Source of the DNA: Nitrososphaerota archaeon | GTDB lineage: Archaea > Thermoproteota > Nitrososphaeria > Nitrososphaerales > UBA57 | DNA length: 9,867 bases | NCBI GenBank assembly: GCA_013378385.1 | Contig: JACAFS010000038.1 | Location: forward strand, 1 to 9,867 | Direction of reading: 5' to 3' | In this document: in pieces, positions 1-9,867 of the stretch | Position numbering within the stretch: the stretch's first letter is position 1 | Layout: each line of letters opens with the position of its first letter | The notes under the pieces: generated by a model | Database searches by the model: none | What the model saw: the letters and a program-made list of their open reading frames with translations, nothing else | What the model was told of the DNA's origin: nothing | Translations under genes and position numbers: made by a program

Positions 1-533
1 ATTTGTTCCAAACTATTGCCATAAGCGATTAAACCATAACGACTAACTAATCCATAGGTTGGTTTCAATCCAACAATACCACAAAAGGAAGCAGGACACC
101 GTATAGAACCACCTGTATCACTGCCCAGGGCAAGGTCTGCCATACCGCCTGCGACAGCAGCGGCGCTGCCACCTGAAGAACCTCCAGGAACTCTTTCAAG
201 ATCATGAGGATTATGTGTTGGTCCAAATGCACTATGTTCGGTACTTGAACCCATTGCAAATTCATCGCAATTTGCTTTTCCTATAATAATTGCGCCATGT
301 TTTTTTATCAATGAAACTGCATGTGCGTCATATGGAGGAACGTAGTTTTCAAGCATTTTTGATGCGCAAGTAGTCCTTAGACCTGAAGTAGATATAGTAT
401 CTTTAACTGCTATGGTTTTTCCAGACAATTTACCGTCAGAGATTGAATCGTCAAGTTGAGAAAAAGTGATATATGCATTAATAGATTTGTTTTTTTCTTT
501 TATTTCCTCAAATTCATCAAGTAAGTTACTCAA
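1..533 (-). CDS. gatA: Asp/Glu-tRNA amidotransferase subunit A (GatA), N-terminal ~177 codons; the 3' end runs off the window
   Basis: Absent from the ORF track because it is open to the window edge. My translation of the minus strand from TTG at 533-531 reads (M)[176 protein letters not shown]. It carries the amidase-signature block ([12 protein letters not shown] ... GSDTGGSIR) and the AVKD lysine. TTG is the only start-like codon after the in-frame TAA at 539-537. Confidence 0.9.
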
Positions 534-536
534 TTT

Positions 537-812
537 TTACATCATCCGTGGGCCCTTGACAAATCTACCTTTCTTTTCAGGAACTACGTCAAGAATTTCA
601 TCGGCAATTGAATCTTTAGGAATATCTTCACGAAAGATGTTAGATAGTGTTTGAGAATCAATATCTTCAGAAGTATCAGCTTTAGATAATAAATCAAAAT
701 ATTCCAAAATCTCTGGGAATTGTTTATCTAATATTTCCATTTCTTGGGGAGAAAGATCAATCTTTGATAATTCAGAGTACTTTTTTGGATCAATAATTTT
801 TTTATCAACCAT
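537..812 (-). CDS. gatC: Asp/Glu-tRNA amidotransferase subunit C (GatC), 91 aa
   Basis: Small acidic protein lying between aspS and gatA. The C-terminal half (DTSEDID...NIFREDIPKDSIADEILDVVPEKKGRFVKGPRMM) matches the usual GatC pattern (DT..V.P...LREDE....L.NAP...G.F.VP). ATG start at 812-810, 6 nt after the aspS stop. Confidence 0.8.
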   Translation of the reverse strand: MVDKKIIDPKKYSELSKIDLSPQEMEILDKQFPEILEYFDLLSKADTSEDIDSQTLSNIFREDIPKDSIADEILDVVPEKKGRFVKGPRMM

Positions 813-818
813 ATACTA

Positions 819-2135
819 TCACGGCATAAGTCTATGTTGATCTCTTGGGAACATACAAACCTCGCGTATATTAGTCTGGTTTGCAATCATCATCATAAGT
901 CTTTCAAATCCTAAACCAAATCCTGCATGAGGAGGCATACCGTAATCAAATACTCTAAGATGGAACTCGAATCCATTAGGATTGAGGTTCTTTTGTTGAA
1001 GTCTATTTTGCAATTCGTCTTTGTCGCTAACACGAGTGCCGCCAGATGCAAGTTCTTTATTGCCATACATTAGATCAAATGACTCGGAATAATCACCTTC
1101 GCATTTAATGTAAAATGGTTTTCCAGCAGAAGGCCAATCAGTGACATAATAGAAATAAGGGTATTTTTTAGATAAGATTTCCATGGATTTGGTAGAAAGA
1201 TCATCGCCCCATTCAATTTTTGGATCTTCAACTTTGATTATATCAATTGCTTCGTTATATGTAACGGCAGGAATACTATCAAAATTAGTCCAGTCCTTTG
1301 AATTCAATATATCTAGATGTTCAGAGCTAGATTGTAAAAGATCGTCCTTAAGATCAATCAATAACTCTTCAATAATTTTAAGAACGTCTTTGTAGTCTAC
1401 AAATGCTTGTTCCATATCTACTGAGATAAATTCGCTAATATGATGCAGGGTTCTACTTTTTTCTGCTCGATATGCATAAGCAATCTCAAAAACTTTTTCA
1501 AAAGGAAGGACTAGTTGTTCTTTGAATAATTGCGGACTCTGAGTCAAAAATGCTTCTTTATCATAATAAAGCATAGGGAAGAGAGCAGATCCTCCTTCAG
1601 TAGCAGTAGCAATAATTTTTGGAGTATTAACTTCAAGATAATCTTTGTCAATGAAGAAGTTTCTTATTGATTGTAATGTTTTAGCACGCAATTTCATTAT
1701 AGATTGAGCAGAAGGACGTCTTAGATCAATAGCACGAATATCAAGTCTTTTATCTATATTTGGGAGTTGACCTCCATAAAGTGAGAAAGGAGGAATTTTA
1801 TTAGTGGTAGATAGAACGGATATCTCTTCAGGATGTAATTCTACACCATTAGGAGCTTTCTCATTTTTCTTAATCGTCCCACGAACTGCAATAGAAGAAT
1901 GCTCCTTCAGAGTTTCAGCTTGAGTGAAAATATCGTCAGGAGAAACGCCTTTTTTTATTATTATTTGAAGTGGACCAGTAGAATCATATAACATCATGAA
2001 ATAAATTTTTCCCTGCTTCCTCATACTGACAATCCAACCGATAACAGTGATATTTTTATTATCAAAATCTACAGAAATATCTTTAGAGTATGATGTCCTA
2101 ATCAATTTTTTTTGGTCATTTTTATCAGCGTTCAT
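819..2135 (-). CDS. aspS: Aspartyl-tRNA synthetase, archaeal/eukaryal type, 438 aa, probably non-discriminating given the adjacent gatCA
   Basis: Class IIb aaRS. The length leaves no room for the bacterial GAD insertion. Motif 2-like YRAEKSRTLHHISEFISVDME, motif 3 GFGLGFERLMM, and the C-terminal FPRDQHRLMP typical of archaeal AspRS. ATG start, TGA stop. Confidence 0.92.
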   Translation of the reverse strand: MNADKNDQKKLIRTSYSKDISVDFDNKNITVIGWIVSMRKQGKIYFMMLYDSTGPLQIIIKKGVSPDDIFTQAETLKEHSSIAVRGTIKKNEKAPNGVELHPEEISVLSTTNKIPPFSLYGGQLPNIDKRLDIRAIDLRRPSAQSIMKLRAKTLQSIRNFFIDKDYLEVNTPKIIATATEGGSALFPMLYYDKEAFLTQSPQLFKEQLVLPFEKVFEIAYAYRAEKSRTLHHISEFISVDMEQAFVDYKDVLKIIEELLIDLKDDLLQSSSEHLDILNSKDWTNFDSIPAVTYNEAIDIIKVEDPKIEWGDDLSTKSMEILSKKYPYFYYVTDWPSAGKPFYIKCEGDYSESFDLMYGNKELASGGTRVSDKDELQNRLQQKNLNPNGFEFHLRVFDYGMPPHAGFGLGFERLMMMIANQTNIREVCMFPRDQHRLMP

Positions 2136-2159
2136 GTCATATGAAAAATGTCGATTAAA

Positions 2160-2167
2160 GTATTAAA
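2160..2167 (-). promoter_or_regulatory. Possible TATA-like box (minus-sense TTTAATAC) upstream of aspS
   Basis: AT-rich 8-mer centred 28.5 nt upstream of the aspS ATG (2135). It overlaps the stop codon of the upstream oxidoreductase. Weak evidence on its own, because TATA-like strings are common in AT-rich DNA. Confidence 0.3.
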
Positions 2168-3194
2168 CTTTGAGTATTACCTTTCCAAAATGTTGACGAT
2201 TTTCAATCAGTTCATGAGCTTTATTTGCATCTTTAAGAGGGTAGACGCTATCTATAACAGGTTTTAATTGACCTGAATTGACAAATTTAAGAAGATGTAA
2301 TAAATCTCCTTTTGAACCCATGAATGAACCCATAAGAGATAATTGTCTACGGTACAATAATCGTATATCAAAATCAGTTTCCGAACCAGTAGTAGTACCG
2401 CAAGTAATCAATCGACCTCCATGAGTAAGAGAATCTATACTTTTAGACCAAGTAATCGCACCAACATGTTCGAATACAACGTCAACGCCAGCACGATTAG
2501 TGTTGTTCCTTACAATTTCTCCAAAGTCCTTATCGTTGTGATTAATAACAAAATCAGCTCCAAGGTCTTTCATTTTATTTAATTTCTCTTCAGTGCCAGC
2601 AGTAGCAAAAACATAACAGTTGAATAATTTGGCAATTTGTATTGCGGCACTTCCAACACCACTAGAACCACCTACAATCAATACAGTTTCTCCATTTTTT
2701 ATCTGTGCACGTTTAACTAACATATTCCAAGCAGTAAGAAAGGTCAAAGGAAGAGATGCGGATTCTTCAAATGAAAGATTTTTAGGTTTGGGTATAATAT
2801 TCGACAAAGGTACGGAAGCAAATTCAGCATAACCGCCTTTCTTCGCCCAGCCTCCAATAATACTATATTCTCTACAAAAATTATCATTTCCTTGAAGGCA
2901 ATGATTGCATCGACCGCAACTAGTTCCTGGAGATACAATAACTTCATCGCCATCGCTAATTCCAGGCGTATTGGAAGAATCCTCTATTATACCGGATATA
3001 TCACATCCAAGCACGTGTGGTAATTTAAGATCAGAATAACCTGTTTTTCCACTCCTAATCCAGAGATCAAGATGATTAATCGAACATGCTTTAACTCTAA
3101 CTAAAACGTCATTACTATTGATTATTGGATCTTCTATATCAGCAAACTCAAGAACGTCAGGAGAACCATGTTTATAGAATATTGAAGCCTTCAA
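2163..3194 (-). CDS. Zinc-type NAD(P)-dependent alcohol dehydrogenase / oxidoreductase (MDR superfamily), 343 aa
   Basis: Structural-zinc lobe CGRCNHCLQGNDNFC, Rossmann glycine motif VLIVGGSSGVGSAAIQ, GroES-like N-terminus MKASIFYKHGSPDVLEF...VRVKACSINHLDLW...PHVLGCDISG. TTG start (3194-3192), with an in-frame TAA 6 codons upstream. Substrate cannot be assigned. Confidence 0.8.
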   Translation of the reverse strand: MKASIFYKHGSPDVLEFADIEDPIINSNDVLVRVKACSINHLDLWIRSGKTGYSDLKLPHVLGCDISGIIEDSSNTPGISDGDEVIVSPGTSCGRCNHCLQGNDNFCREYSIIGGWAKKGGYAEFASVPLSNIIPKPKNLSFEESASLPLTFLTAWNMLVKRAQIKNGETVLIVGGSSGVGSAAIQIAKLFNCYVFATAGTEEKLNKMKDLGADFVINHNDKDFGEIVRNNTNRAGVDVVFEHVGAITWSKSIDSLTHGGRLITCGTTTGSETDFDIRLLYRRQLSLMGSFMGSKGDLLHLLKFVNSGQLKPVIDSVYPLKDANKAHELIENRQHFGKVILKV

Positions 3195-3217
3195 TTTAAT
3201 TAGAAAAACATTTTACT

Positions 3218-3227
3218 AAATATAAAT
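3218..3227 (-). promoter_or_regulatory. Possible TATA-like box (minus-sense ATTTATATTT) upstream of the oxidoreductase gene
   Basis: Centred about 28.5 nt upstream of the TTG at 3194, inside the 38-nt gap after the GT2 stop. Confidence 0.3.
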
Positions 3228-3232
3228 CTCAC

Positions 3233-3946
3233 TTATCTAGAATACCATTGAGAGAAATTTGATTTATCTTTCAATGTAGATTTTCCATGGGTAGATAATT
3301 GAACGGCAATTTTTACGAAATCTCTTGGTTTAAGATTATTTGCACGTCTGGACGAAGTATAAATTGGCTCTCGAATGACAGTGAATTTTTTATCGTTAGA
3401 TTTACCATACTTGCGTATAGCGTATGAAAAGTCTAGGTCTTCAAATGCGAAGATATCTTCATTAAATCCTCCAACTGCATCAAATACAGTTCGTTTACAA
3501 AACATGAATGCTCCAGTAGGGTTAAGATTCAATAAAGGCATAGAGATATTAGTAAATTTCCAAGTAGCCCGCCACCAAAATGGAGAAGAAACAAATTGAA
3601 CAATAGAACTACCTGCAATTGTGTCGTCTTGAGATATTTTATCAAGTAAAGTTTTTACGAGATATTTAGATGGCCATGAATCAGCGTCTATAAAAACGAG
3701 CCATTCGCCATTTGCAATACTAGCACCTTTATTACGTGCTTTAGATATTTGGTTAAATGATTCAAAAATTACTCTAGCTCCAAAATCTTTTGCAATAATT
3801 TGAGTGTCATCAGTGGAATTATTATCACAGACAATTATTTCATAATCAGAAAAACGATTAGATTCAAACGAGTTTTTAATTTTTATTAAATTTTCAAGCA
3901 AATGTAATTCTTCATTATAAGCAGGCACAATTATTGATATTTTCAA
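3233..3946 (-). CDS. Family 2 glycosyltransferase (GT-A fold), 237 aa
   Basis: N-terminal MKISIIVPAYNEE, DNNSTDDT, and a DxD-type FIDADS motif. TTG start (3946-3944), with a TAA two codons upstream. Confidence 0.8.
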   Translation of the reverse strand: MKISIIVPAYNEELHLLENLIKIKNSFESNRFSDYEIIVCDNNSTDDTQIIAKDFGARVIFESFNQISKARNKGASIANGEWLVFIDADSWPSKYLVKTLLDKISQDDTIAGSSIVQFVSSPFWWRATWKFTNISMPLLNLNPTGAFMFCKRTVFDAVGGFNEDIFAFEDLDFSYAIRKYGKSNDKKFTVIREPIYTSSRRANNLKPRDFVKIAVQLSTHGKSTLKDKSNFSQWYSR

Positions 3947-3970
3947 TTGTTATGGCTATCAAATTACATA

Positions 3971-3978
3971 CTTATAAC
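3971..3978 (-). promoter_or_regulatory. TATA-like box (minus-sense GTTATAAG) for the GT2-led gene string
   Basis: Centred 28.5 nt upstream of the TTG at 3946, in the 71-bp divergent intergenic region. The spacing implies a leaderless or near-leaderless mRNA. Confidence 0.45.
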
Positions 3979-3984
3979 CTTACA

Positions 3985-3994
3985 TTTTTTATAG
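3985..3994 (+). promoter_or_regulatory. TATA-like box (TTTTTTATAG) for metG
   Basis: Core TTTTTATA (3986-3993) is centred 28.5 nt upstream of the TTG at 4018, which implies a leaderless or near-leaderless mRNA. Confidence 0.45.
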
Positions 3995-4017
3995 CACTAG
4001 AATGATTAGATATCAAT

Positions 4018-5673
4018 TTGCGTGAAAATTTGGTTAAAGATAACATAGTCATTACAAGTGCGCTACCTTATGCAAATGGAGAGATTCATCTAGGTCACAT
4101 AGTATCAACTTATTTACCTGCAGACATTCTATCACGATTCTTTAGATTATCAGGAAAGAATGTTGTATTCACTTGTGCATCTGACGATTTTGGAACACCA
4201 ATACTTCTTCAATCTGAAAAGCAGAACATAACACCTCAGAAATATGTCGAATATTGGAAAGAGCGCGATTTAAAGGATTTTACAGATCTTGGAATTATGT
4301 TTGATGATTTCCAGAATACTAGTTCAGAAAAAAATATTGAATTAACTCAGTATTTCTTCAACCAGATTCATAATAACGAATTAATTTACAAAAAAGAAAT
4401 TAATCAATTATACTGCAATACTGATGAGAAATATCTTCCAGATAGGTACGTATTGGGAACATGTCCTTATTGTAATGAAGATAATCAATATTCTGATGGG
4501 TGTGAGAAATGTGGAAGGGCTTTCAATCATTCAGAAGTTCTAAAACCAAGATGTGCCATATGTCAAAATCAACCAGTGTTAAAATCAAGTATACATTATT
4601 TCTTCAAACTTTCAGCATTATCAAATAAATTAAAATCGTGGCTCGACAATAATGATAATCTACAAAAAGATGTTAAAAACTACGTAATCAGATGGATAGA
4701 AGATGGATTAAACGACTGGGACATAACCAGAGATATTACATGGGGAGTCAAGATTCCTCTAGAAGAAGCAGACGGAAAGGTCCTGTATGGTTGGTTTGAC
4801 AACCATATATGCTATATTTCAACCACAATCAATTATCTCGAGTCAAAAGGAATAAATGGAAAAGAATTTTGGAATAACTCTACAATATATCATTTCATAG
4901 GAAAAGACATCGTATACCATCATTATTTGTTCTTGACTGCAATGAGACTTGCCCTAAACGAGGAATATAAACTTCCAGATTATATTCCAACAAGAGGACA
5001 TTTAATGCTGCAAGGAGAAAAATTCTCAAAAAGCAGAGGAATGTATATCGGATTGAGGGATTTTTTGAATGATTTTCCAGCAGATTATTTAAGATATTAT
5101 CTAACAAGAATCACCCCCTACGATCAATCTGATGTAAATTTTGATTGGGATGATTTTCAAGTAAAAATAAACAATGAATTAGTAGCAAGTATTGGAAATT
5201 TTATTCATAGAGCATTAAGTTTTACAAATTCAAAATATAGTAATACAATTCCAGAGCCTAAAGAATACGATAAAGATGATCAAGAATTAATAGAATTAAT
5301 TCAAGAATCAAAAAATAAAGTTAGAGAAAATATAGAGAACAATCAAGTAGACAGAGCAATGAAAAATATTTTAGACTTGTCAGACGGTTGTAACAGATAT
5401 TTCCAAAAGAAAGAACCATGGAAAGGAAATAGCGAAAATACAATTTATTTGAGTATAAATGCAGTACATAGTTTAGGAATATTACTTCAACCATTCATGC
5501 CTCACAGCACAGAGAAATTATTCAAGTCAATGAATATTGAAGAAAAAACAGTAAATTGGAACAATTGTGGAGAATTATACATTAAATCCAATCATAAAAT
5601 AAATAAGCCTGAGATTTTATTCAAAAAAATTGAAGATAAAGAAATCAGTGAACAAAAAGAAAAACTAAAATAG
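4018..5673 (+). CDS. metG: Methionyl-tRNA synthetase, 551 aa, short form without an appended C-terminal tRNA-binding domain
   Basis: HIGH motif as EIHLGH, KMSKS motif as KFSKS, zinc knuckles CPYC...CEKC...CAIC in the CP insertion. TTG start (in-frame TGA 5 codons upstream), TAG stop. Confidence 0.93.
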   Translation: MRENLVKDNIVITSALPYANGEIHLGHIVSTYLPADILSRFFRLSGKNVVFTCASDDFGTPILLQSEKQNITPQKYVEYWKERDLKDFTDLGIMFDDFQNTSSEKNIELTQYFFNQIHNNELIYKKEINQLYCNTDEKYLPDRYVLGTCPYCNEDNQYSDGCEKCGRAFNHSEVLKPRCAICQNQPVLKSSIHYFFKLSALSNKLKSWLDNNDNLQKDVKNYVIRWIEDGLNDWDITRDITWGVKIPLEEADGKVLYGWFDNHICYISTTINYLESKGINGKEFWNNSTIYHFIGKDIVYHHYLFLTAMRLALNEEYKLPDYIPTRGHLMLQGEKFSKSRGMYIGLRDFLNDFPADYLRYYLTRITPYDQSDVNFDWDDFQVKINNELVASIGNFIHRALSFTNSKYSNTIPEPKEYDKDDQELIELIQESKNKVRENIENNQVDRAMKNILDLSDGCNRYFQKKEPWKGNSENTIYLSINAVHSLGILLQPFMPHSTEKLFKSMNIEEKTVNWNNCGELYIKSNHKINKPEILFKKIEDKEISEQKEKLK

Positions 5674-5678
5674 ATTTT

Positions 5679-5715
5679 AAAAAAAATATTTAGCCGCTCC
5701 CGAAGGAGCAGCTAA
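5679..5715 (-). terminator. Hairpin plus T8 terminator-like element downstream of PQQ paralog 1, also placed 3' of the convergent metG
   Basis: Minus-sense TTAGCTGCTCC-TTCG-GGAGCGGCTAA (5715..5690): 11 bp with one G.U, closed as a C(UUCG)G tetraloop. It is followed by ATATTTTTTTT (A8 run on plus strand 5679-5686). In plus sense the same position is a C.A mismatch, so the stem is better in the minus-strand transcript. It begins 11 nt after the TAG stop (5729-5727). Confidence 0.6.
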
Positions 5716-5726
5716 GATATATCTAT

Positions 5727-8012
5727 CTATTTTTTGTTGGCTCTAGAGAAGAGTACACCGCCAACTACTGCGAGAACTACACCAAGACCAATTACAACAT
5801 ATGAAATTGGACTGATAACTTCCTCAGTGGTGACGACTTCTACTTCTTCAACAACGGGTACTTCTACCTCTCGGACGACTTCGACTTCAACGATTCGTTC
5901 AGCACCAGGTACTTCTACTTCTCTGATGACTTCGACTTCTTCGATGACTTCGACTTCGACTTCGACTACACGTTCAACTTCTCTGATTTCAATGGCTACA
6001 TCTTGCCAATTGTCTCTCAGACCGTATGCCATAATGGCACCAGGTTGTGATGAACCCATTCCTCGAATTGCACGACCTCCGATAACTCTGAATATCTTCA
6101 TGTTACCATCGCTATCTGCAGCAATTGTAGGTTGGATTACAGCTTGTGAACCTGTGTTGTGTTCATAGAGTAGTTCTCCTGTATCTGCGTCAAGGCCTCT
6201 GGCCCAACCATCAACGGCTGCAAACCATACGACTCCACCACTGACAATGACTCCGCCTCGGAATCCATAACCGTCAATAAAGTATCTCCACTTTTCTTCG
6301 CCAGTGTTGACGTCGAATGCGACGATACTAGAATTGATTATTGGATCGTGAGGTGCAGCTGGATGACCACGTTCTTCTTGACATGCTGCATTACAACCAG
6401 CAAGGCTTACTCCTCGTGTTTCAGCATTACCGACTGATGCCCATTCAGGAAGGTTGTATAAACCAGCATAGATCATGTTTCTGTCAGGATCGAATGCAAA
6501 GTCAGCTTCAAGACAACCTGTTGTTTGACAGTTCATCCAGAATGGTTTTGTGTCAGGATAGTTAGTCCATGGTTTTGTCATATCTGCATCACTTAATGGA
6601 TCATATAATTCACAGATTACTGCACAACGTTGAATGAATGTTGATTCCATTGCATGGTATGCATAGCCTGTTTCTGCATCAAGTACATAAATTATACCGT
6701 TTTTACAGCCTCCAAGAATGACTCGTTTCTCTTCATTGTTTACTACGGTGTCTACCAGCATAGTATTCCATGAACAGTCATAGTCCCAAAGATCTCGTGG
6801 GGCTGTTTGATATGCCCATAAGAATTCTCCATTTTTAGCGTCAAGAGCAACAAATGATGCTCCGAACAATCTTGGACCAGGTGCATGAGTACCGTTTCTA
6901 TCAGGTCCAGCTTGTGCTGTACCATAGTAGATTCTACCATTTTCTTTGTCGATAGGCATCTGTCCCCAGACATTGCTTATACCTGAGTTAGAACGCATGT
7001 CTCCCCAGTCGTTTCTAAGGATATCTTGGTTCATTTCACAAGCTTTGTGAGCAAATGGAGCTTCGGTTACTTTTGGTGAGTACATCCAGATCTTATCACA
7101 GTTATCTACTAACCATTGACCCCAAGCGGCTTTCTCTTCTACGAATAGTGGGCCATCTTTACCAGGACCACATGTTGTAGGATCACCACAAGGAGGTTGT
7201 AAGAAAGTTCTCCAGACTAATTCGCCAGTGTCATAAGTTCTTGCAGAAGCAAAGTGTCTGCCTCCATAAGTTCCTTCAGCATGACCACCGAGTGCATGGT
7301 AAATTAGATTTTCTTCAACCCAAGTAGTTGGAGGATGTGTTCCTCTACTTCTGTATTCGCCACTGTTAGTTGGAATACCCCAGCCAGCTGCATTTAATTT
7401 GCTTGCAGGATACCAACCGTCAGCTGCATTTGTATTTTCAACACATAAGTGAAGAATTTGTTTTGCAACTTCGCCAGTCTTTGGATCATTGAATGTGTAT
7501 TTACATCCAAAGTCTGTTTGCACTAAGAAACCATCACTGTAATACATACCATGAGTGTGGGCTGTATCAACAGAGATAGGATAATCTTTTCGTCCTTGAT
7601 CTTGATCATATTCAGGATGTTCCCATTGCCAAACAACAGTTCCATCTCTTGCATTATATGCGAGAATTGATTTTCGATTTAAGACATTAAAGACAATACC
7701 GTCTACAACCAATTGAGGAGCTTGTGAACCTTCTGCGTTACCCCAACTACCCGCTCCGAATTGTGTTACGGAAGGCATAGGTGCAACCCATTTTAGTTCT
7801 ATAAACTGTGCGTTCTCTTTATTGATTTGTGTTTGAGGATTGTGGTTTGTTCCGAATCGATTATGATTCATGAATTCCCAATTTCGCTCTTCACGGCTGA
7901 GATTGTTTTGTCCTTCAGCTGTTCCCATAGGTGTAACAAGTACCAAAGTAGATGCTACTAATAAATAACCCAATAGGACGGCAGCAAATGCTAACCAATT
8001 TCTATGGTTCAT
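5727..8012 (-). CDS. Quinoprotein (PQQ-type) dehydrogenase family protein, 8-bladed beta-propeller, with N-terminal signal/anchor and C-terminal EV-repeat stalk plus TM anchor (paralog 1, 761 aa)
   Basis: The N-terminal mature region NWEFMNHNRFGTNHNPQTQINKENAQFIELKW resembles the quinoprotein ADH start (NW...G...YSPL.QIN..NV..L..W). Other family matches: PQLVVDGIVF; repeated W-docking-type motifs AxDxxTGxxxW (AYNARDGTVVWQW, TYDTGELVWRT, ALDAKNGEFLWAY, VLDAETGY, AFDVNTGEEKWRY, GLDADTGELLY); GGHAEGTYGGR (compare GSSGAELGVRG); PRDLWDYD (compare PHDEWDYD/WDFA); CKNGIIYVLD. 14 Cys. Confidence 0.8.
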   Translation of the reverse strand: MNHRNWLAFAAVLLGYLLVASTLVLVTPMGTAEGQNNLSREERNWEFMNHNRFGTNHNPQTQINKENAQFIELKWVAPMPSVTQFGAGSWGNAEGSQAPQLVVDGIVFNVLNRKSILAYNARDGTVVWQWEHPEYDQDQGRKDYPISVDTAHTHGMYYSDGFLVQTDFGCKYTFNDPKTGEVAKQILHLCVENTNAADGWYPASKLNAAGWGIPTNSGEYRSRGTHPPTTWVEENLIYHALGGHAEGTYGGRHFASARTYDTGELVWRTFLQPPCGDPTTCGPGKDGPLFVEEKAAWGQWLVDNCDKIWMYSPKVTEAPFAHKACEMNQDILRNDWGDMRSNSGISNVWGQMPIDKENGRIYYGTAQAGPDRNGTHAPGPRLFGASFVALDAKNGEFLWAYQTAPRDLWDYDCSWNTMLVDTVVNNEEKRVILGGCKNGIIYVLDAETGYAYHAMESTFIQRCAVICELYDPLSDADMTKPWTNYPDTKPFWMNCQTTGCLEADFAFDPDRNMIYAGLYNLPEWASVGNAETRGVSLAGCNAACQEERGHPAAPHDPIINSSIVAFDVNTGEEKWRYFIDGYGFRGGVIVSGGVVWFAAVDGWARGLDADTGELLYEHNTGSQAVIQPTIAADSDGNMKIFRVIGGRAIRGMGSSQPGAIMAYGLRDNWQDVAIEIREVERVVEVEVEVIEEVEVIREVEVPGAERIVEVEVVREVEVPVVEEVEVVTTEEVISPISYVVIGLGVVLAVVGGVLFSRANKK
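5730..5816 (-). other. C-terminal anchor of paralog 1: ISPISY motif, TM helix (VVIGLGVVLAVVGGVLF), basic tail SRANKK
   Basis: Residues 733-761. A hydrophobic 17-18 aa stretch followed by R/K residues at the extreme C-terminus. 20/29 residues are identical to the paralog 2 tail. Confidence 0.7.
5817..5993 (-). repeat. In-frame low-complexity repeat encoding a 59-aa Glu/Val-alternating stalk (IEIREVERVVEVEVEVIEEVEVIREVEVPGAERIVEVEVVREVEVPVVEEVEVVTTEEV)
   Basis: The plus strand shows gacttcgacttcgacttcgac and related units, that is minus-sense (GAAGTC)n / GAAGTA units. Composition is essentially E, V, I, R, P, T only. Confidence 0.85.
7917..8012 (-). other. N-terminal signal peptide or signal-anchor of paralog 1
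   Basis: MNHRN (positive n-region), WLAFAAVLLGYLLVASTLVLV (hydrophobic core), then TPMGTA-EG, a small-residue candidate cleavage site. Confidence 0.6.
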
Positions 8013-8032
8013 TGCCGGTATAGTAATGAATG

Positions 8033-8041
8033 TATATTTAA
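8033..8041 (-). promoter_or_regulatory. TATA-like box (minus-sense TTAAATATA) for PQQ paralog 1
   Basis: Centred about 25 nt upstream of the ATG at 8012. No SD-like sequence lies between them, which suggests a leaderless or very short 5' UTR. Confidence 0.4.
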
Positions 8042-8107
8042 GAAATTATAGAAAATATGCAATTACATATAAAGAAGTTCATAAAAATCGCCAAATATTG
8101 AATGAAT

Positions 8108-8127
8108 GTTAAGAAAAGAATCTTAAC
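8108..8127. promoter_or_regulatory. Inverted repeat GTTAAGA-N6-TCTTAAC in the inter-paralog spacer
   Basis: Perfect 7-bp arms (8108-8114 / 8121-8127) about 96-115 nt upstream of the paralog 1 ATG and downstream of the paralog 2 terminator. Candidate regulator-binding palindrome; function unknown. Confidence 0.3.
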
Positions 8128-8146
8128 GATGGTGTTGTGTTTGAAT

Positions 8147-8181
8147 AAAAAAAATATTAGAGCTGCCTATTTCTAGGCAGC
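8147..8181 (-). terminator. Hairpin plus T8 terminator-like element downstream of PQQ paralog 2
   Basis: Minus-sense GCTGCCTA-GAAA-TAGGCAGC (8181..8162): perfect 8 bp with a GNRA-type loop. It is followed by TCTAATATTTTTTTTA (A8 on plus strand 8147-8154) and begins 11 nt after the TAG stop (8195-8193). Confidence 0.6.
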
Positions 8182-8192
8182 GTCTAAAATAA

Positions 8193-9867
8193 CTACTTTG
8201 AGGTTGATCTAGAGTAGATAACGCCAGCTACTACTACTAAGATTACACCTAATCCAATTGCAACGTATGAAATTGGACTGATGACTTCTTCAGTTACAGT
8301 AACTTCTGTCTCTACTTCAACGATTCTTTCGACTTCAACAGGTACTTCCTTTTCAACTATTACTTCGTTGATGATCTCCTTTTCAACAATTCTTTCGACT
8401 TCGACTTCTCGTTCGACGACGACTTCGACTTCTTGAATTATTGTCTCTGGACCATCAGGTAGTTGATCTGGGTTACCAAATGCAGCTAATGAACCTGGAA
8501 GTGCTGTACTAGAGAATAAGAATCCTCCACCACCACCAATGTATAGGAATACTTTGTAGTTTCCATCACTGTCTGCACCAATTGTTGGCATAACACTTAC
8601 TGGAATTCCGAACAATTTCTTGTTAAGAATTTCACCTGTGTCTGCGTCCAACATGTACATGTTTCCATCACTAGCATATGCATATACTACGCCGCCACTA
8701 ACCATGACACCGCCTCTATATGAAACGCCTTCAATGTATGTACTCCATACTTCTCCACCGGTTCTCCAGTCGAATGCATGAATTGTTGAATTCTTTGGTT
8801 CTACTTGTTCAATTGTACTTCCCTGGTTACCAAAGTCAGTTACAGGTTTAATCTGGAACCTTCTTGGAGAGTTCTGTACACCCATGTAGATGTGTTTGTC
8901 ATCAATTGCCATGTCTGATTCGATATGTGCCCATGCGTTTGGACCCACTGCAATACCAGTACATGAATTAGTTTCTCCTGCTGCACAGTCTGGTGAGTTC
9001 TGGTTCATCCAGTCCTTGTTCATGTGTTCAAATGTCATATCACAACATGCGTCTGGGCCGACTACCTGAGCTCCACCGTTACCACTTACACCTAAGCTTG
9101 AGTCACCACCATAGTTCCAACCTTGCATATTACGAGCTATGCTTTTTGGATCGATGATCCATATAGGTTCACCAGTAGCTGAATCAAGTGCGTAAACGAT
9201 ACCGTTCTTGCAAGATGCGATGTAGACTTCTTGATTACCTATGTCTCTCAATGCACCACCCCATGAACAGTCCATGTCCCACAAATCGTGTGGTAAAGCT
9301 GCAAATCCCCAACCGAGTTCGCCGGTTCGAGCGTCAACAGCAATTAATGCACTACCAAAGAGGTTTGGTCCGAATCTGAGAGTACCGTTAGGATAAGGTC
9401 CTACGTCACCTGTTCCCATGTATACTAGACCAGTCTTCTCACTGTAAGGCATGTTGCCCCAGACTACTGAGAATGCACTTGCGGTGTGTATTTCACCGAA
9501 ATGAGGAGTACCTGGTTTCATATTAATCCAATCGTTATTTACTGCATCAACAGGTACATCTCGGCAGTTAACTGCTAGATGTGAGCCTCCTGATTCAATA
9601 TATTTAGGATATTCAAAGTACCATACTTGACCGTTAGTTCTATCACATTGGTCTTGTGCCCATGTTGGTTGACTTCCGTCACCAGGAGGCATTAACCAGT
9701 TACGATAAACTTCAGTTGGAGAAGCTGCGTTACTGATGTCAATTCCAATAAGACTGGAACGTCCACCACGACCACTTGCACCGAATGAAGGCCATACGAC
9801 AATATCGTCAATTATTTGAGGAGGATGGTTCTGAATAGCACTCATGTAACCTTTACTCTTGAATGTA
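8193..9867 (-). CDS. Quinoprotein (PQQ-type) dehydrogenase family protein, paralog 2; the 5' end runs off the window (by eye ~235 aa missing)
   Basis: The ORF track starts at the ATG at 9845, but the frame stays open to the window edge (upstream codons ...TFKSKGY-MSAIQ). By eye its first residues align near residue 237 of paralog 1 (LMPP vs LQPP; NNDW vs RNDW; VVWGNMPYSEKTGLVYMGT vs NVWGQMPIDKENGRIYYGT). Shared motifs: AVDARTGELGW, PHDLWDMDCSW, CKNGIVYALDSATGEPIW, AFDWRTGGEVW, GGVMVSGGVVY, MLDADTGEIL, PTIGADSDGN. Same EV stalk and anchor as paralog 1. Confidence 0.8.
   Translation of the reverse strand, partial: TFKSKGYMSAIQNHPPQIIDDIVVWPSFGASGRGGRSSLIGIDISNAASPTEVYRNWLMPPGDGSQPTWAQDQCDRTNGQVWYFEYPKYIESGGSHLAVNCRDVPVDAVNNDWINMKPGTPHFGEIHTASAFSVVWGNMPYSEKTGLVYMGTGDVGPYPNGTLRFGPNLFGSALIAVDARTGELGWGFAALPHDLWDMDCSWGGALRDIGNQEVYIASCKNGIVYALDSATGEPIWIIDPKSIARNMQGWNYGGDSSLGVSGNGGAQVVGPDACCDMTFEHMNKDWMNQNSPDCAAGETNSCTGIAVGPNAWAHIESDMAIDDKHIYMGVQNSPRRFQIKPVTDFGNQGSTIEQVEPKNSTIHAFDWRTGGEVWSTYIEGVSYRGGVMVSGGVVYAYASDGNMYMLDADTGEILNKKLFGIPVSVMPTIGADSDGNYKVFLYIGGGGGFLFSSTALPGSLAAFGNPDQLPDGPETIIQEVEVVVEREVEVERIVEKEIINEVIVEKEVPVEVERIVEVETEVTVTEEVISPISYVAIGLGVILVVVAGVIYSRSTSK
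8196..8282 (-). other. C-terminal anchor of paralog 2: ISPISY motif, TM helix (VAIGLGVILVVVAGVIY), tail SRSTSK
   Basis: The last 29 residues have the same length and architecture as in paralog 1. Confidence 0.7.
8283..8441 (-). repeat. In-frame low-complexity repeat encoding a 53-aa Glu/Val/Ile-alternating stalk (IIQEVEVVVEREVEVERIVEKEIINEVIVEKEVPVEVERIVEVETEVTVTEEV)
   Basis: The plus strand shows cgacttcgacttctcgttcgacgacgacttcgacttc, that is minus-sense GAAGTC/GAAGTA units. It shares ERIVEVE and TEEV with paralog 1. Confidence 0.85.

Follow-up and report, generated by a model that had tools for sequence, protein, structure and literature searches.

The C-terminal sorting systems PEP-CTERM/exosortase, GlyGly-CTERM/rhombosortase, MYXO-CTERM/myxosortase and LPXTG/sortase have a tripartite design in common, in which a short motif is followed by a hydrophobic helix and a cluster of basic residues. 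In archaea, PGF-CTERM places a low-complexity, Thr-rich linker before a short signature at the start of the helix and closes with basic residues at the extreme C-terminus, and PEFG-CTERM proteins were detected in the proteomes of Nitrosopumilus, a member of the ammonia-oxidising Thaumarchaeota (PMC6593220). The same general layout was observed in a 9,867-nucleotide stretch of DNA from a Nitrososphaerota archaeon (contig JACAFS010000038.1, positions 1 to 9,867 of the forward strand), which is referred to below as the window. Two tandem genes on its minus strand encode pyrroloquinoline quinone (PQQ)-dependent dehydrogenases (paralog 1, 5727..8012, 761 aa, complete; paralog 2, 8193..>9866, with its N-terminus beyond the window end), and both proteins end in a related tail with the motif SPxSY. 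The analysis of this tail and of the spacer in front of it firmly supports a tether in two parts, of which the spacer is disposable and disordered and the anchor module is conserved and portable.

In comparison to PGF-CTERM, the signature is SPxSY and not PGF, the linker is acidic and Val-rich or Lys/Glu/Val-rich instead of Thr-rich, the carriers nearly all belong to one enzyme family, and no archaeosortase was found in approximately 0.7 Mb of flanking sequence. PEFG-CTERM is the closest system in terms of organism, as it shares the phylum and the general C-terminal layout; however, its signature differs, and the SPxSY tail occurs in non-ammonia-oxidising lineages and chiefly on PQQ dehydrogenases. 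The signatures of PEP-, GlyGly- and MYXO-CTERM and of LPXTG are absent as well, and their pattern of many unrelated substrates per genome was not seen. The eight-bladed catalytic propeller is shared with the bacterial PQQ dehydrogenases (mGDH; XoxF/MxaF; type I-III alcohol dehydrogenases). In contrast to these, the thaumarchaeal enzymes are predicted to have one C-terminal helix as their anchor, set off from the propeller by a long spacer, while mGDH of the E. coli type is held in the membrane by helices at its N-terminus and not at its C-terminus.

Relatives with 85-90% identity were located on contigs of Thaumarchaeota/Nitrososphaerales metagenome-assembled genomes (MAGs), ATL and ALOHA genomes among them, and the window is assigned on sequence grounds to an uncultured deep-sea archaeon of the heterotrophic marine Thaumarchaeota (HMT). 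An exact database look-up of the window protein returned no record. The PQQ dehydrogenases of HMT are described as numerous, highly expressed, 'membrane-bound' and often encoded in adjacent pairs (PMC7300363, PMC10640624, PMC13374868); there are 4-19 of them per MAG (PMC7300363) and they make up approximately 3% of these small genomes (PMC7300363, PMC13374868). HMT are reported to be without cytochrome c, which leaves the electron route to the respiratory chain open (PMC7300363). The C-terminal tail, which sits on ecologically important and highly expressed enzymes, is without description in this literature (PMC7300363, PMC10640624, PMC13374868).

A conserved tail behind an exchangeable spacer

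An earlier note on this DNA, made from the letters alone, had described a four-part architecture at the end of both paralogs, consisting of an E/V-rich segment, a motif, a hydrophobic helix and a basic end. This arrangement was seen as described, and the motif TEEVISPISY together with the next Val is identical in all 11 positions. In paralog 1, the acidic spacer (5829..6017 (-), residues 666-728, 63 aa) contains 19 E, 22 V, 5 I and 6 R and has a net charge of -15. It is followed by the juxtamembrane motif TEEVISPISY (5799..5828 (-), residues 729-738, including S734, P735 and Y738), the hydrophobic transmembrane core VVIGLGVVLAVVGGVLFS (5745..5798 (-), residues 739-756) and the basic, presumably cytoplasmic, stop RANKK (5730..5744 (-), residues 757-761; stop codon 5727-5729). 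The spacer of paralog 2 (8295..8471 (-), 59 aa) has 17 E, 23 V/I and a net charge of -14, and is followed by the identical motif (8265..8294 (-)), the hydrophobic 18-mer VAIGLGVILVVVAGVIYS as putative transmembrane core (8211..8264 (-)) and the basic end RSTSK (8196..8210 (-); stop codon 8193-8195). The coordinates and counts of the earlier note were thus essentially right, except that the spacer is slightly longer than given there if it is counted from the end of the propeller.

A search with the full-length protein retrieved approximately 65 thaumarchaeal homologue clusters (E<1e-71, identity down to 31%), beyond which the matches fell sharply to bacterial alcohol dehydrogenases. Almost all of these clusters end in a 34-residue tail with the consensus VTVETISPISY-xAIGxGVVLxVVAGVLF-sRRKK, and the bacterial relatives retrieved stop at a 'GLPD' junction, i.e. 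where the thaumarchaeal spacer starts. The two tails of the window share 24 of 34 residues (71%). Counted from the Pro of the motif, Pro+1, Tyr+4 and Gly+8 (G742 in paralog 1) were invariant in 71/71 homologues and Arg+23 was present in 70/71, with fixed spacing and practically no insertions or deletions. The claim that the tail is more conserved than the catalytic body holds at long distance, where tail identity reaches a plateau at approximately 0.6 (motif 0.7) while the body drops to approximately 0.3, but not in close orthologues, in which the two are alike (0.74 for the tail and 0.75 for the body in P0004). Identity in the N-terminal signal region of tail-bearing homologues was only about 0.2-0.28. 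Within the 17-residue hydrophobic core, the positional identity across 71 homologues was 0.56, compared to 0.20 after shuffling within each sequence. Conservation along the tail follows the turn of a helix: its periodicity is strongest at 90-100 degrees per residue (permutation p=0.04), and P+1, Y+4, G+8, V+11, V+12, V+15 and V+19 fall on one face of a helix. The plateau, the shuffling test and the helical periodicity indicate that the tail is constrained well beyond the needs of a hydrophobic anchor.

Such likeness could be incidental if it arose by gene conversion between the tandem paralogs, from low-complexity composition or from an assembly artefact. The genes are indeed adjacent, their spacer DNA is repetitive, and some tail-bearing 'mini-proteins' in the databases look like chimeras joined within such repeats. 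However, the synonymous divergence of the tail equals that of the body: at residues identical between the paralogs, the same codon is used for 57% of those in the body, 62% of those in the spacer and 58% of those in the tail. As the tail codons are no more alike than the body codons, the similarity is kept at the protein level and recent gene conversion is not responsible for it. Each paralog's own tail variant is also retained in orthologues from five independent MAGs, and the tail recurs across hundreds of independent contigs with a positional identity far above that expected from composition alone. An incidental origin is therefore considered hardly credible, and it is effectively refuted by the codon comparison, the orthologue variants and the shuffling test.

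An AlphaFold model of paralog 1, built with 43 homologues, contained a confident propeller, a spacer without secondary structure (predicted local distance difference test score, pLDDT, <50) and a helix from residue 735 to 758. Since this helix begins at Pro735, SPISY forms the first turn of the predicted transmembrane helix rather than preceding it as in the earlier note. Small or helix-destabilising residues (S, S and G-x-G) occupy the outer third of the tail helix. The proposal that the E-V alternation forms a beta-strand found no counterpart in the model, in which the spacer has no beta structure. The full-length carriers start with a charged n-region and about 20 hydrophobic residues, as judged by sequence and the AlphaFold helix. 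The N-terminal signal sequence named in the earlier note was recognised in paralog 1, in an orthologue of paralog 2 and in full-length homologues. In paralog 1 (7911..8012 (-), residues 1-34), it consists of MNHRNW, 20 hydrophobic residues and TPMGTAEG, with an AlphaFold helix at residues 4-26; the full-length orthologue of paralog 2 (L003:5650-7965) also starts with an N-terminal signal sequence. The PQQ-dehydrogenase family consensus has AEA|Q before the conserved mature N-terminus, and the signal sequence is presumably cleaved.

The spacer behaves differently from the tail. It had been taken as part of a fixed module; instead, four types were found before the same tail, namely the EV type of the window, KEVIKEVP, PGPERIVEV and an Ala/Glu-rich, helix-like type, with lengths of 29-83 aa among homologues. 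On a neighbour-joining tree of the catalytic domains (homologues P0002-P0066 and P0122-P0201) these types are interleaved many times, and by sequence identity paralog 1 is nearer to proteins with a KEV spacer (45-49%) than to paralog 2 with its EV spacer (35%). The latter observation fits the published finding that several PQQ-dehydrogenase subfamilies are common to marine and soil lineages (PMC10640624). The distribution suggests that it is the organism, and not the orthogroup, which determines the spacer type, and that spacers would evolve genome-wide and not gene by gene. With an unchanging anchor and a spacer type that departs from the tree of catalytic domains, these proteins are a clear example of modularity in the evolution of the envelope. 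At the DNA level, the spacers are imperfect tandem repeats, with periods of 6 and 18 nt in paralog 1 and a period of 6 in paralog 2, and their lengths differ even between 90%-identical orthologues; from the repeat structure, this change in length between close orthologues is attributed to repeat turnover.

Linkers made of KEV-type repeats are frequent in bacteria, where they occur in unrelated proteins (with DUF2760 or DnaJ domains, or response regulators), and the spacer is therefore no unique invention. Charged low-complexity spacers are also known from the PEVK segment of titin and from the Pro/Glu/Lys-rich rod of TonB. PEVK-like spacers share with the thaumarchaeal ones their Glu/Val-rich repeats (with or without Lys and Pro), a predicted disordered or extended state and a position between a membrane anchor and a folded domain; the likeness of titin PEVK, TonB and KEV linkers to the EV spacer is one of composition only. 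In a neighbouring protein encoded at L024:2019-3026 (+) and at eight similar loci, a membrane helix at the N-terminus precedes (EPEPVVQ)n repeats, which by their sequence appear to be another charged low-complexity spacer in the same organisms.

Carriers of the tail

The earlier note had proposed to search for the tail on unrelated protein families. A word-indexed search with a 47-aa tail returned only one fragment; as this method is unsuited to short tails, an exhaustive profile search was carried out. The profile was made from 32 tails and 34 positions and compared with 1.84 billion representative proteins at E<=1e-3. Just 91 matches were obtained, mostly PQQ dehydrogenases or fragments of them. 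Nearly all matches end at the C-terminus of the protein or within a few residues of it, and the exceptions are mostly fragments. Approximately five clusters among the 91 are exported proteins other than PQQ dehydrogenases, in which the invariant positions and the spacing are kept. They comprise an NHL/Vgb-lyase-like propeller with a poly-Pro and KEV spacer (P0188, on two independent contigs), a protein with PD40 repeats and a PPC domain behind which a PGPER spacer follows (P0170), DUF3224-like proteins without a spacer (P0194/P0209), a small Cys-rich protein, likewise without a spacer (P0159, on two independent contigs), and a small protein whose contig is crowded with short unannotated open reading frames (ORFs) and has a weak integrase match (P0166/P0210). 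An independent DNA-pattern scan of Joint Genome Institute (JGI) metagenomes yielded 82 loci, and all 66 carriers that could be classified (66/66) were PQQ dehydrogenases. Considering the exceptions in the profile search together with this count, the non-PQQ carriers are real but rare. A handful of unrelated exported proteins thus bear the tail, although the carriers are overwhelmingly PQQ dehydrogenases.

Several copies can be present in one genome: strict-pattern copies of the tail were counted at least four times on a 1.01-Mb contig and five times on a 522-kb contig, all on PQQ dehydrogenases. None of the approximately five non-PQQ carrier families was seen to share a genome with another in any of the databases searched, and similarity of their contigs to known loci was uninformative for taxonomic placement. 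P0211, a 55%-identical homologue of P0188, keeps the poly-Pro and KEV spacer, yet its tail is degenerate (GSITYSDIRYVVIGAVIG...KRKG) and has lost the motif Pro and the spacing, which indicates that a tail can degenerate, presumably without loss of anchoring.

Proteins with other C-terminal anchors are encoded close to the tail genes. Further PQQ-dehydrogenase subfamilies and a 683-aa exported protein beside them (L082:455-2431 (-), L035:6632-8656 (-), L038:2098-4149 (-) and L003:3150-5201 (+)) have an ordinary C-terminal helix with a basic end, and neither SPxSY nor an EV spacer is present.

A few sequences were set aside. Four ORFs on contigs of less than 1 kb encode 'mini-proteins' of signal peptide, spacer and tail, and were discarded as carriers because they are probable assembly chimeras. 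P0130, P0133, P0142 and P0168 as well as L016:86-373 (+) have nothing besides a signal peptide with a lipobox, a spacer of the EV type and the tail, and lie on contigs of 0.5-0.8 kb. The contig L016 carries an AGGAG bacterial-style ribosome-binding site and a lipobox on its 5' side and an HMT-type tail, flank and hairpin on its 3' side. Judged by these sequences, the chimeras were probably joined inside (GAAGTC)n repeats, in which case co-occurring bacteria own lipoproteins with EV-type linkers. The whole of P0196 and the C-terminus of P0007 are made of repeats ('...SVSPVSYTHLDVYKRQ...') that give a spurious weak match to the tail profile and that look like translated sequencing-adapter artefacts.

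A small protein with a membrane signal, a KEV spacer and an SPVSY tail is encoded at L009:843-1148 (+) on a contig (1..8245) with about 20 short unannotated ORFs and a weak integrase match, which may be a mobile element or a provirus; a scan of IMG/VR for the tail motif, aimed at viral carriage, gave no match.

Tether, docking helix or sorting signal

On balance, we consider it somewhat probable that the C-terminal region is the tether of an exported PQQ-dependent dehydrogenase whose anchor is retained and whose helix contacts a stable partner or itself. The tail itself is most likely a portable type-I membrane tether that is particular to this lineage and has one face of its helix conserved. 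Its module is xxVE-T/V-I-SPxSY, followed by a Gly-containing helix of 17-18 residues and R-R/K-K, and is specific to non-ammonia-oxidising Thaumarchaeota. It is proposed that this module was inherited vertically in the PQQ-dehydrogenase clade and occasionally transferred to other exported proteins. A Sec-type N-terminal signal sequence, the sequence features of which are present, would export the propeller and presumably be cleaved. The C-terminal helix would then stop the transfer and remain membrane-embedded, its basic end facing the cytoplasm as anticipated from the positive-inside rule. Ser-Pro would cap the helix and Tyr would be located at the interface, and the conserved stripe from P+1 to V+19 may pack against a common membrane component or against itself. 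The spacer of 30-80 residues would let the enzyme float several nanometres above the membrane and under the S-layer, where it would oxidise external substrates and pass the electrons to a separate carrier. The helix is conserved strongly and on one side, and unrelated carriers retain it; these observations speak for the helix being in contact with something.

This contact might be particular to the enzyme, with the helix docking a membrane electron acceptor or quinone-reducing partner or driving dimerisation, and without any general anchoring or sorting role. The PQQ dehydrogenases account for more than 90% of the carriers, the conserved positions share a single face of the helix and have Gly residues among them, and the reported absence of cytochrome c in HMT leaves room for such a route (PMC7300363). 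However, a long disordered spacer lies between the propeller and the helix, so that the helix cannot position the active site or serve electron transfer directly and a separate carrier is needed. The same genomes encode further PQQ-dehydrogenase subfamilies that have generic anchors, and the SPxSY tail occurs on non-redox proteins (the NHL-like propeller, the PD40 and PPC protein and the small Cys-rich protein), in part without a spacer. We regard enzyme-specific docking as unlikely because these non-redox carriers exist.

Several observations weigh against a tether that merely retains the enzyme. Plain anchors normally keep only their hydrophobicity, and the invariant P, Y, G and R at fixed spacing on unrelated carriers resemble curated sorting signals. 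The tails give weak generic matches to many CTERM models. The motif is absent from further proteins with C-terminal anchors encoded on contigs like those of the carriers, and is therefore not needed merely to anchor proteins in these cells.

These points suit a true sorting signal, tentatively termed 'SPxSY-CTERM', whose motif and helix would be recognised by a dedicated membrane enzyme that removes the helix after export. An archaeosortase-like transpeptidase, a rhomboid, a CPBP-type protease or an S24/S26-type peptidase could act in this way, and the dehydrogenase would end up attached to lipid or the envelope, or released under the S-layer. Motif, hydrophobic helix and basic cluster do stand at the extreme C-terminus of proteins with an N-terminal signal, the invariant positions keep their spacing on unrelated carriers, and several copies are found per genome, as on the 1.01-Mb and 522-kb contigs. 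The small or helix-destabilising residues in the outer third of the helix, the anchors without the motif in the same genomes and the use of PEFG-CTERM by ammonia-oxidising relatives (PMC6593220) point in the same direction. On the other hand, the carriers come almost entirely from one family, as seen in the 66/66 metagenome count and the approximately five non-PQQ clusters among 91, unrelated carriers were never seen together in one genome, and P0211 keeps its spacer with a degenerate tail.

The C-terminal segments of the window (88 and 82 aa) had no NCBIfam or Pfam match at E<=10, and PGF-CTERM (TIGR04126), PEF-CTERM, PEFG-CTERM, PEP-CTERM (TIGR02595) and LPXTG (TIGR01167) were among the models left unmatched at this threshold. 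When only the first tail of the window was used (35-aa query), LPXTG_anchor scored 14.7 bits, below the cut-off of 15.9, and covered the helix and the basic end only. Weak matches of the 32 family tails were obtained to LPXTG_anchor (27/32, best E 2.9e-4), PEP_CTERM (4/32), PGF_CTERM (2/32, neither of them a window tail), GGIII-like and other models; they span the helix and the basic end and never the signature. This weak likeness to the membrane and basic parts of many sorting models is in favour of a sorting signal. Because the signature tests were negative, the tail belongs to no curated sorting family, and the earlier statement that it lies outside the recognised signatures held up, with no specific curated CTERM or Pfam match. 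By its sequence, it is rated as a C-terminal anchor or candidate sorting domain that is specific to one lineage and previously undescribed. CTERM-type domains defined in silico are numerous, and the mechanism of the SPxSY tail can be followed as far as a predicted anchoring.

The partner enzyme anticipated by the earlier note did not emerge. In six annotated contexts and the 82 metagenome loci, no recurrent non-PQQ membrane enzyme was found beside tail genes; the recurrent neighbours were further PQQ dehydrogenases and repeated genes of shared orthologous loci, none of them identified as a membrane enzyme. Among the ORFs with multiple transmembrane (TM) segments in the approximately 0.7 Mb of fetched flanks, there was no exosortase or archaeosortase match; these ORFs encode DUF92, transporters, NrfD, an M50 peptidase and several unannotated proteins. 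The lack of a conserved neighbour and of an archaeosortase-type enzyme in the flanks stands against a sorting signal. A 280-aa protein with 7 TM segments upstream in L003 was considered as an archaeosortase and rejected, as it has no Pfam or NCBIfam match and is a member of a MoxR-DUF58 cluster. This conserved cluster (L003:127-5201, L013:2414-9510) consists of a MoxR-type AAA ATPase, DUF58, the 280-aa 7-TM protein and a large exported protein; it is located just upstream of PQQ-dehydrogenase genes in HMT loci, with one MoxR ORF in L003 and three in L013.

Within the orthologue groups listed in the accessible part of Data Set S3 of a published genome comparison, the sole exosortase group comprises 3 species with a non-HMT representative, and thus none has an HMT representative (PMC7300363). 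The same part lists a rhomboid group of 9 species with an HMT representative and an S24-type signal-peptidase-like group of 6 species (PMC7300363). Both are contained in an HMT-represented stretch that resembles the 'gained in HMT' sheet (PMC7300363). Their place among the HMT-represented groups in this part of the data set agrees with a sorting signal; however, rhomboids and signal peptidases are near-universal and their presence says little, so that the rhomboid and S24-type groups are leads only. Overall, a dedicated sorting signal is viewed as possible but rather improbable. Somewhat more doubtful still is the wider proposal that SPxSY-CTERM is an unrecognised archaeal sorting signal handled by a non-archaeosortase enzyme (with a rhomboid or an S24-type peptidase as candidate), that it would govern the display or release of the top energy enzymes and that the spacer would be re-tuned genome-wide, acidic EV versus zwitterionic KEV, to envelope and habitat. 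If SPxSY-CTERM were true, it would control the surface display or release of top-expressed energy enzymes in a globally distributed deep-ocean archaeon.

The retained tether described above provides a concrete topology, with an enzyme on a long flexible tether that would need a separate electron carrier. The searchable tail model can serve as a marker for this PQQ-dehydrogenase clade and for other proteins displayed likewise, and the data raise the testable question whether Thaumarchaeota have a system for sorting, or a partner system, that departs from the archaeosortase paradigm.

Further features of the window

The catalytic propeller of paralog 1 (6018..7910 (-), residues 35-665) matched PF01011 with E=3.1e-40 and was modelled with pLDDT values mostly >85; the C-terminal 465 residues of the paralog 2 propeller (8472..9866 (-), the gene runs off the window end) matched with E=6.5e-25. 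The respective scores of 138.9 and 88.3 bits are above the Pfam gathering cut-off of 26.7. Over the aligned catalytic body the paralogs are identical at 161/413 positions (39%; BLASTP overall 35%). The cut-off of the methanol/ethanol subfamily TIGR03075 was missed (146.9 versus 480), and the enzymes therefore represent a divergent PQQ-dehydrogenase clade. The PDB relatives of paralog 1 are methanol, alcohol and glucose dehydrogenases, and their alignments stop by approximately residue 654. Residues 409-415 of paralog 1 (window 6768..6788 (-)) read WDYDCSW and include an Asp-Tyr-Asp motif; the counterpart in paralog 2 is WDMDCSW. The Asp-Tyr-Asp motif has been tied to lanthanide-dependent methanol dehydrogenases (PMC7300363), and the neighbouring paralogs may differ in metal or substrate.

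A terminator-like hairpin of 11 pairs followed by a T-run lies 3' of paralog 1 (5690..5715 (-)), and a hairpin terminator, likewise with a T-run, was found 3' of paralog 2 (8162-8181). A 144-aa Thr/Ser-rich ORF on the opposite strand (window 5734..6168 (+)) is no gene and merely mirrors, in antisense, the DNA that encodes the EV repeats. Besides the quinoproteins, the window encodes GatC, AspRS, a Zn-dependent dehydrogenase, a family-2 glycosyltransferase and MetRS. The neighbourhood of MetRS, the family-2 glycosyltransferase and the Zn-dehydrogenase beside the PQQ-dehydrogenase gene (2163..5673) is kept in a 73%-identical relative (L013:12368-15905).

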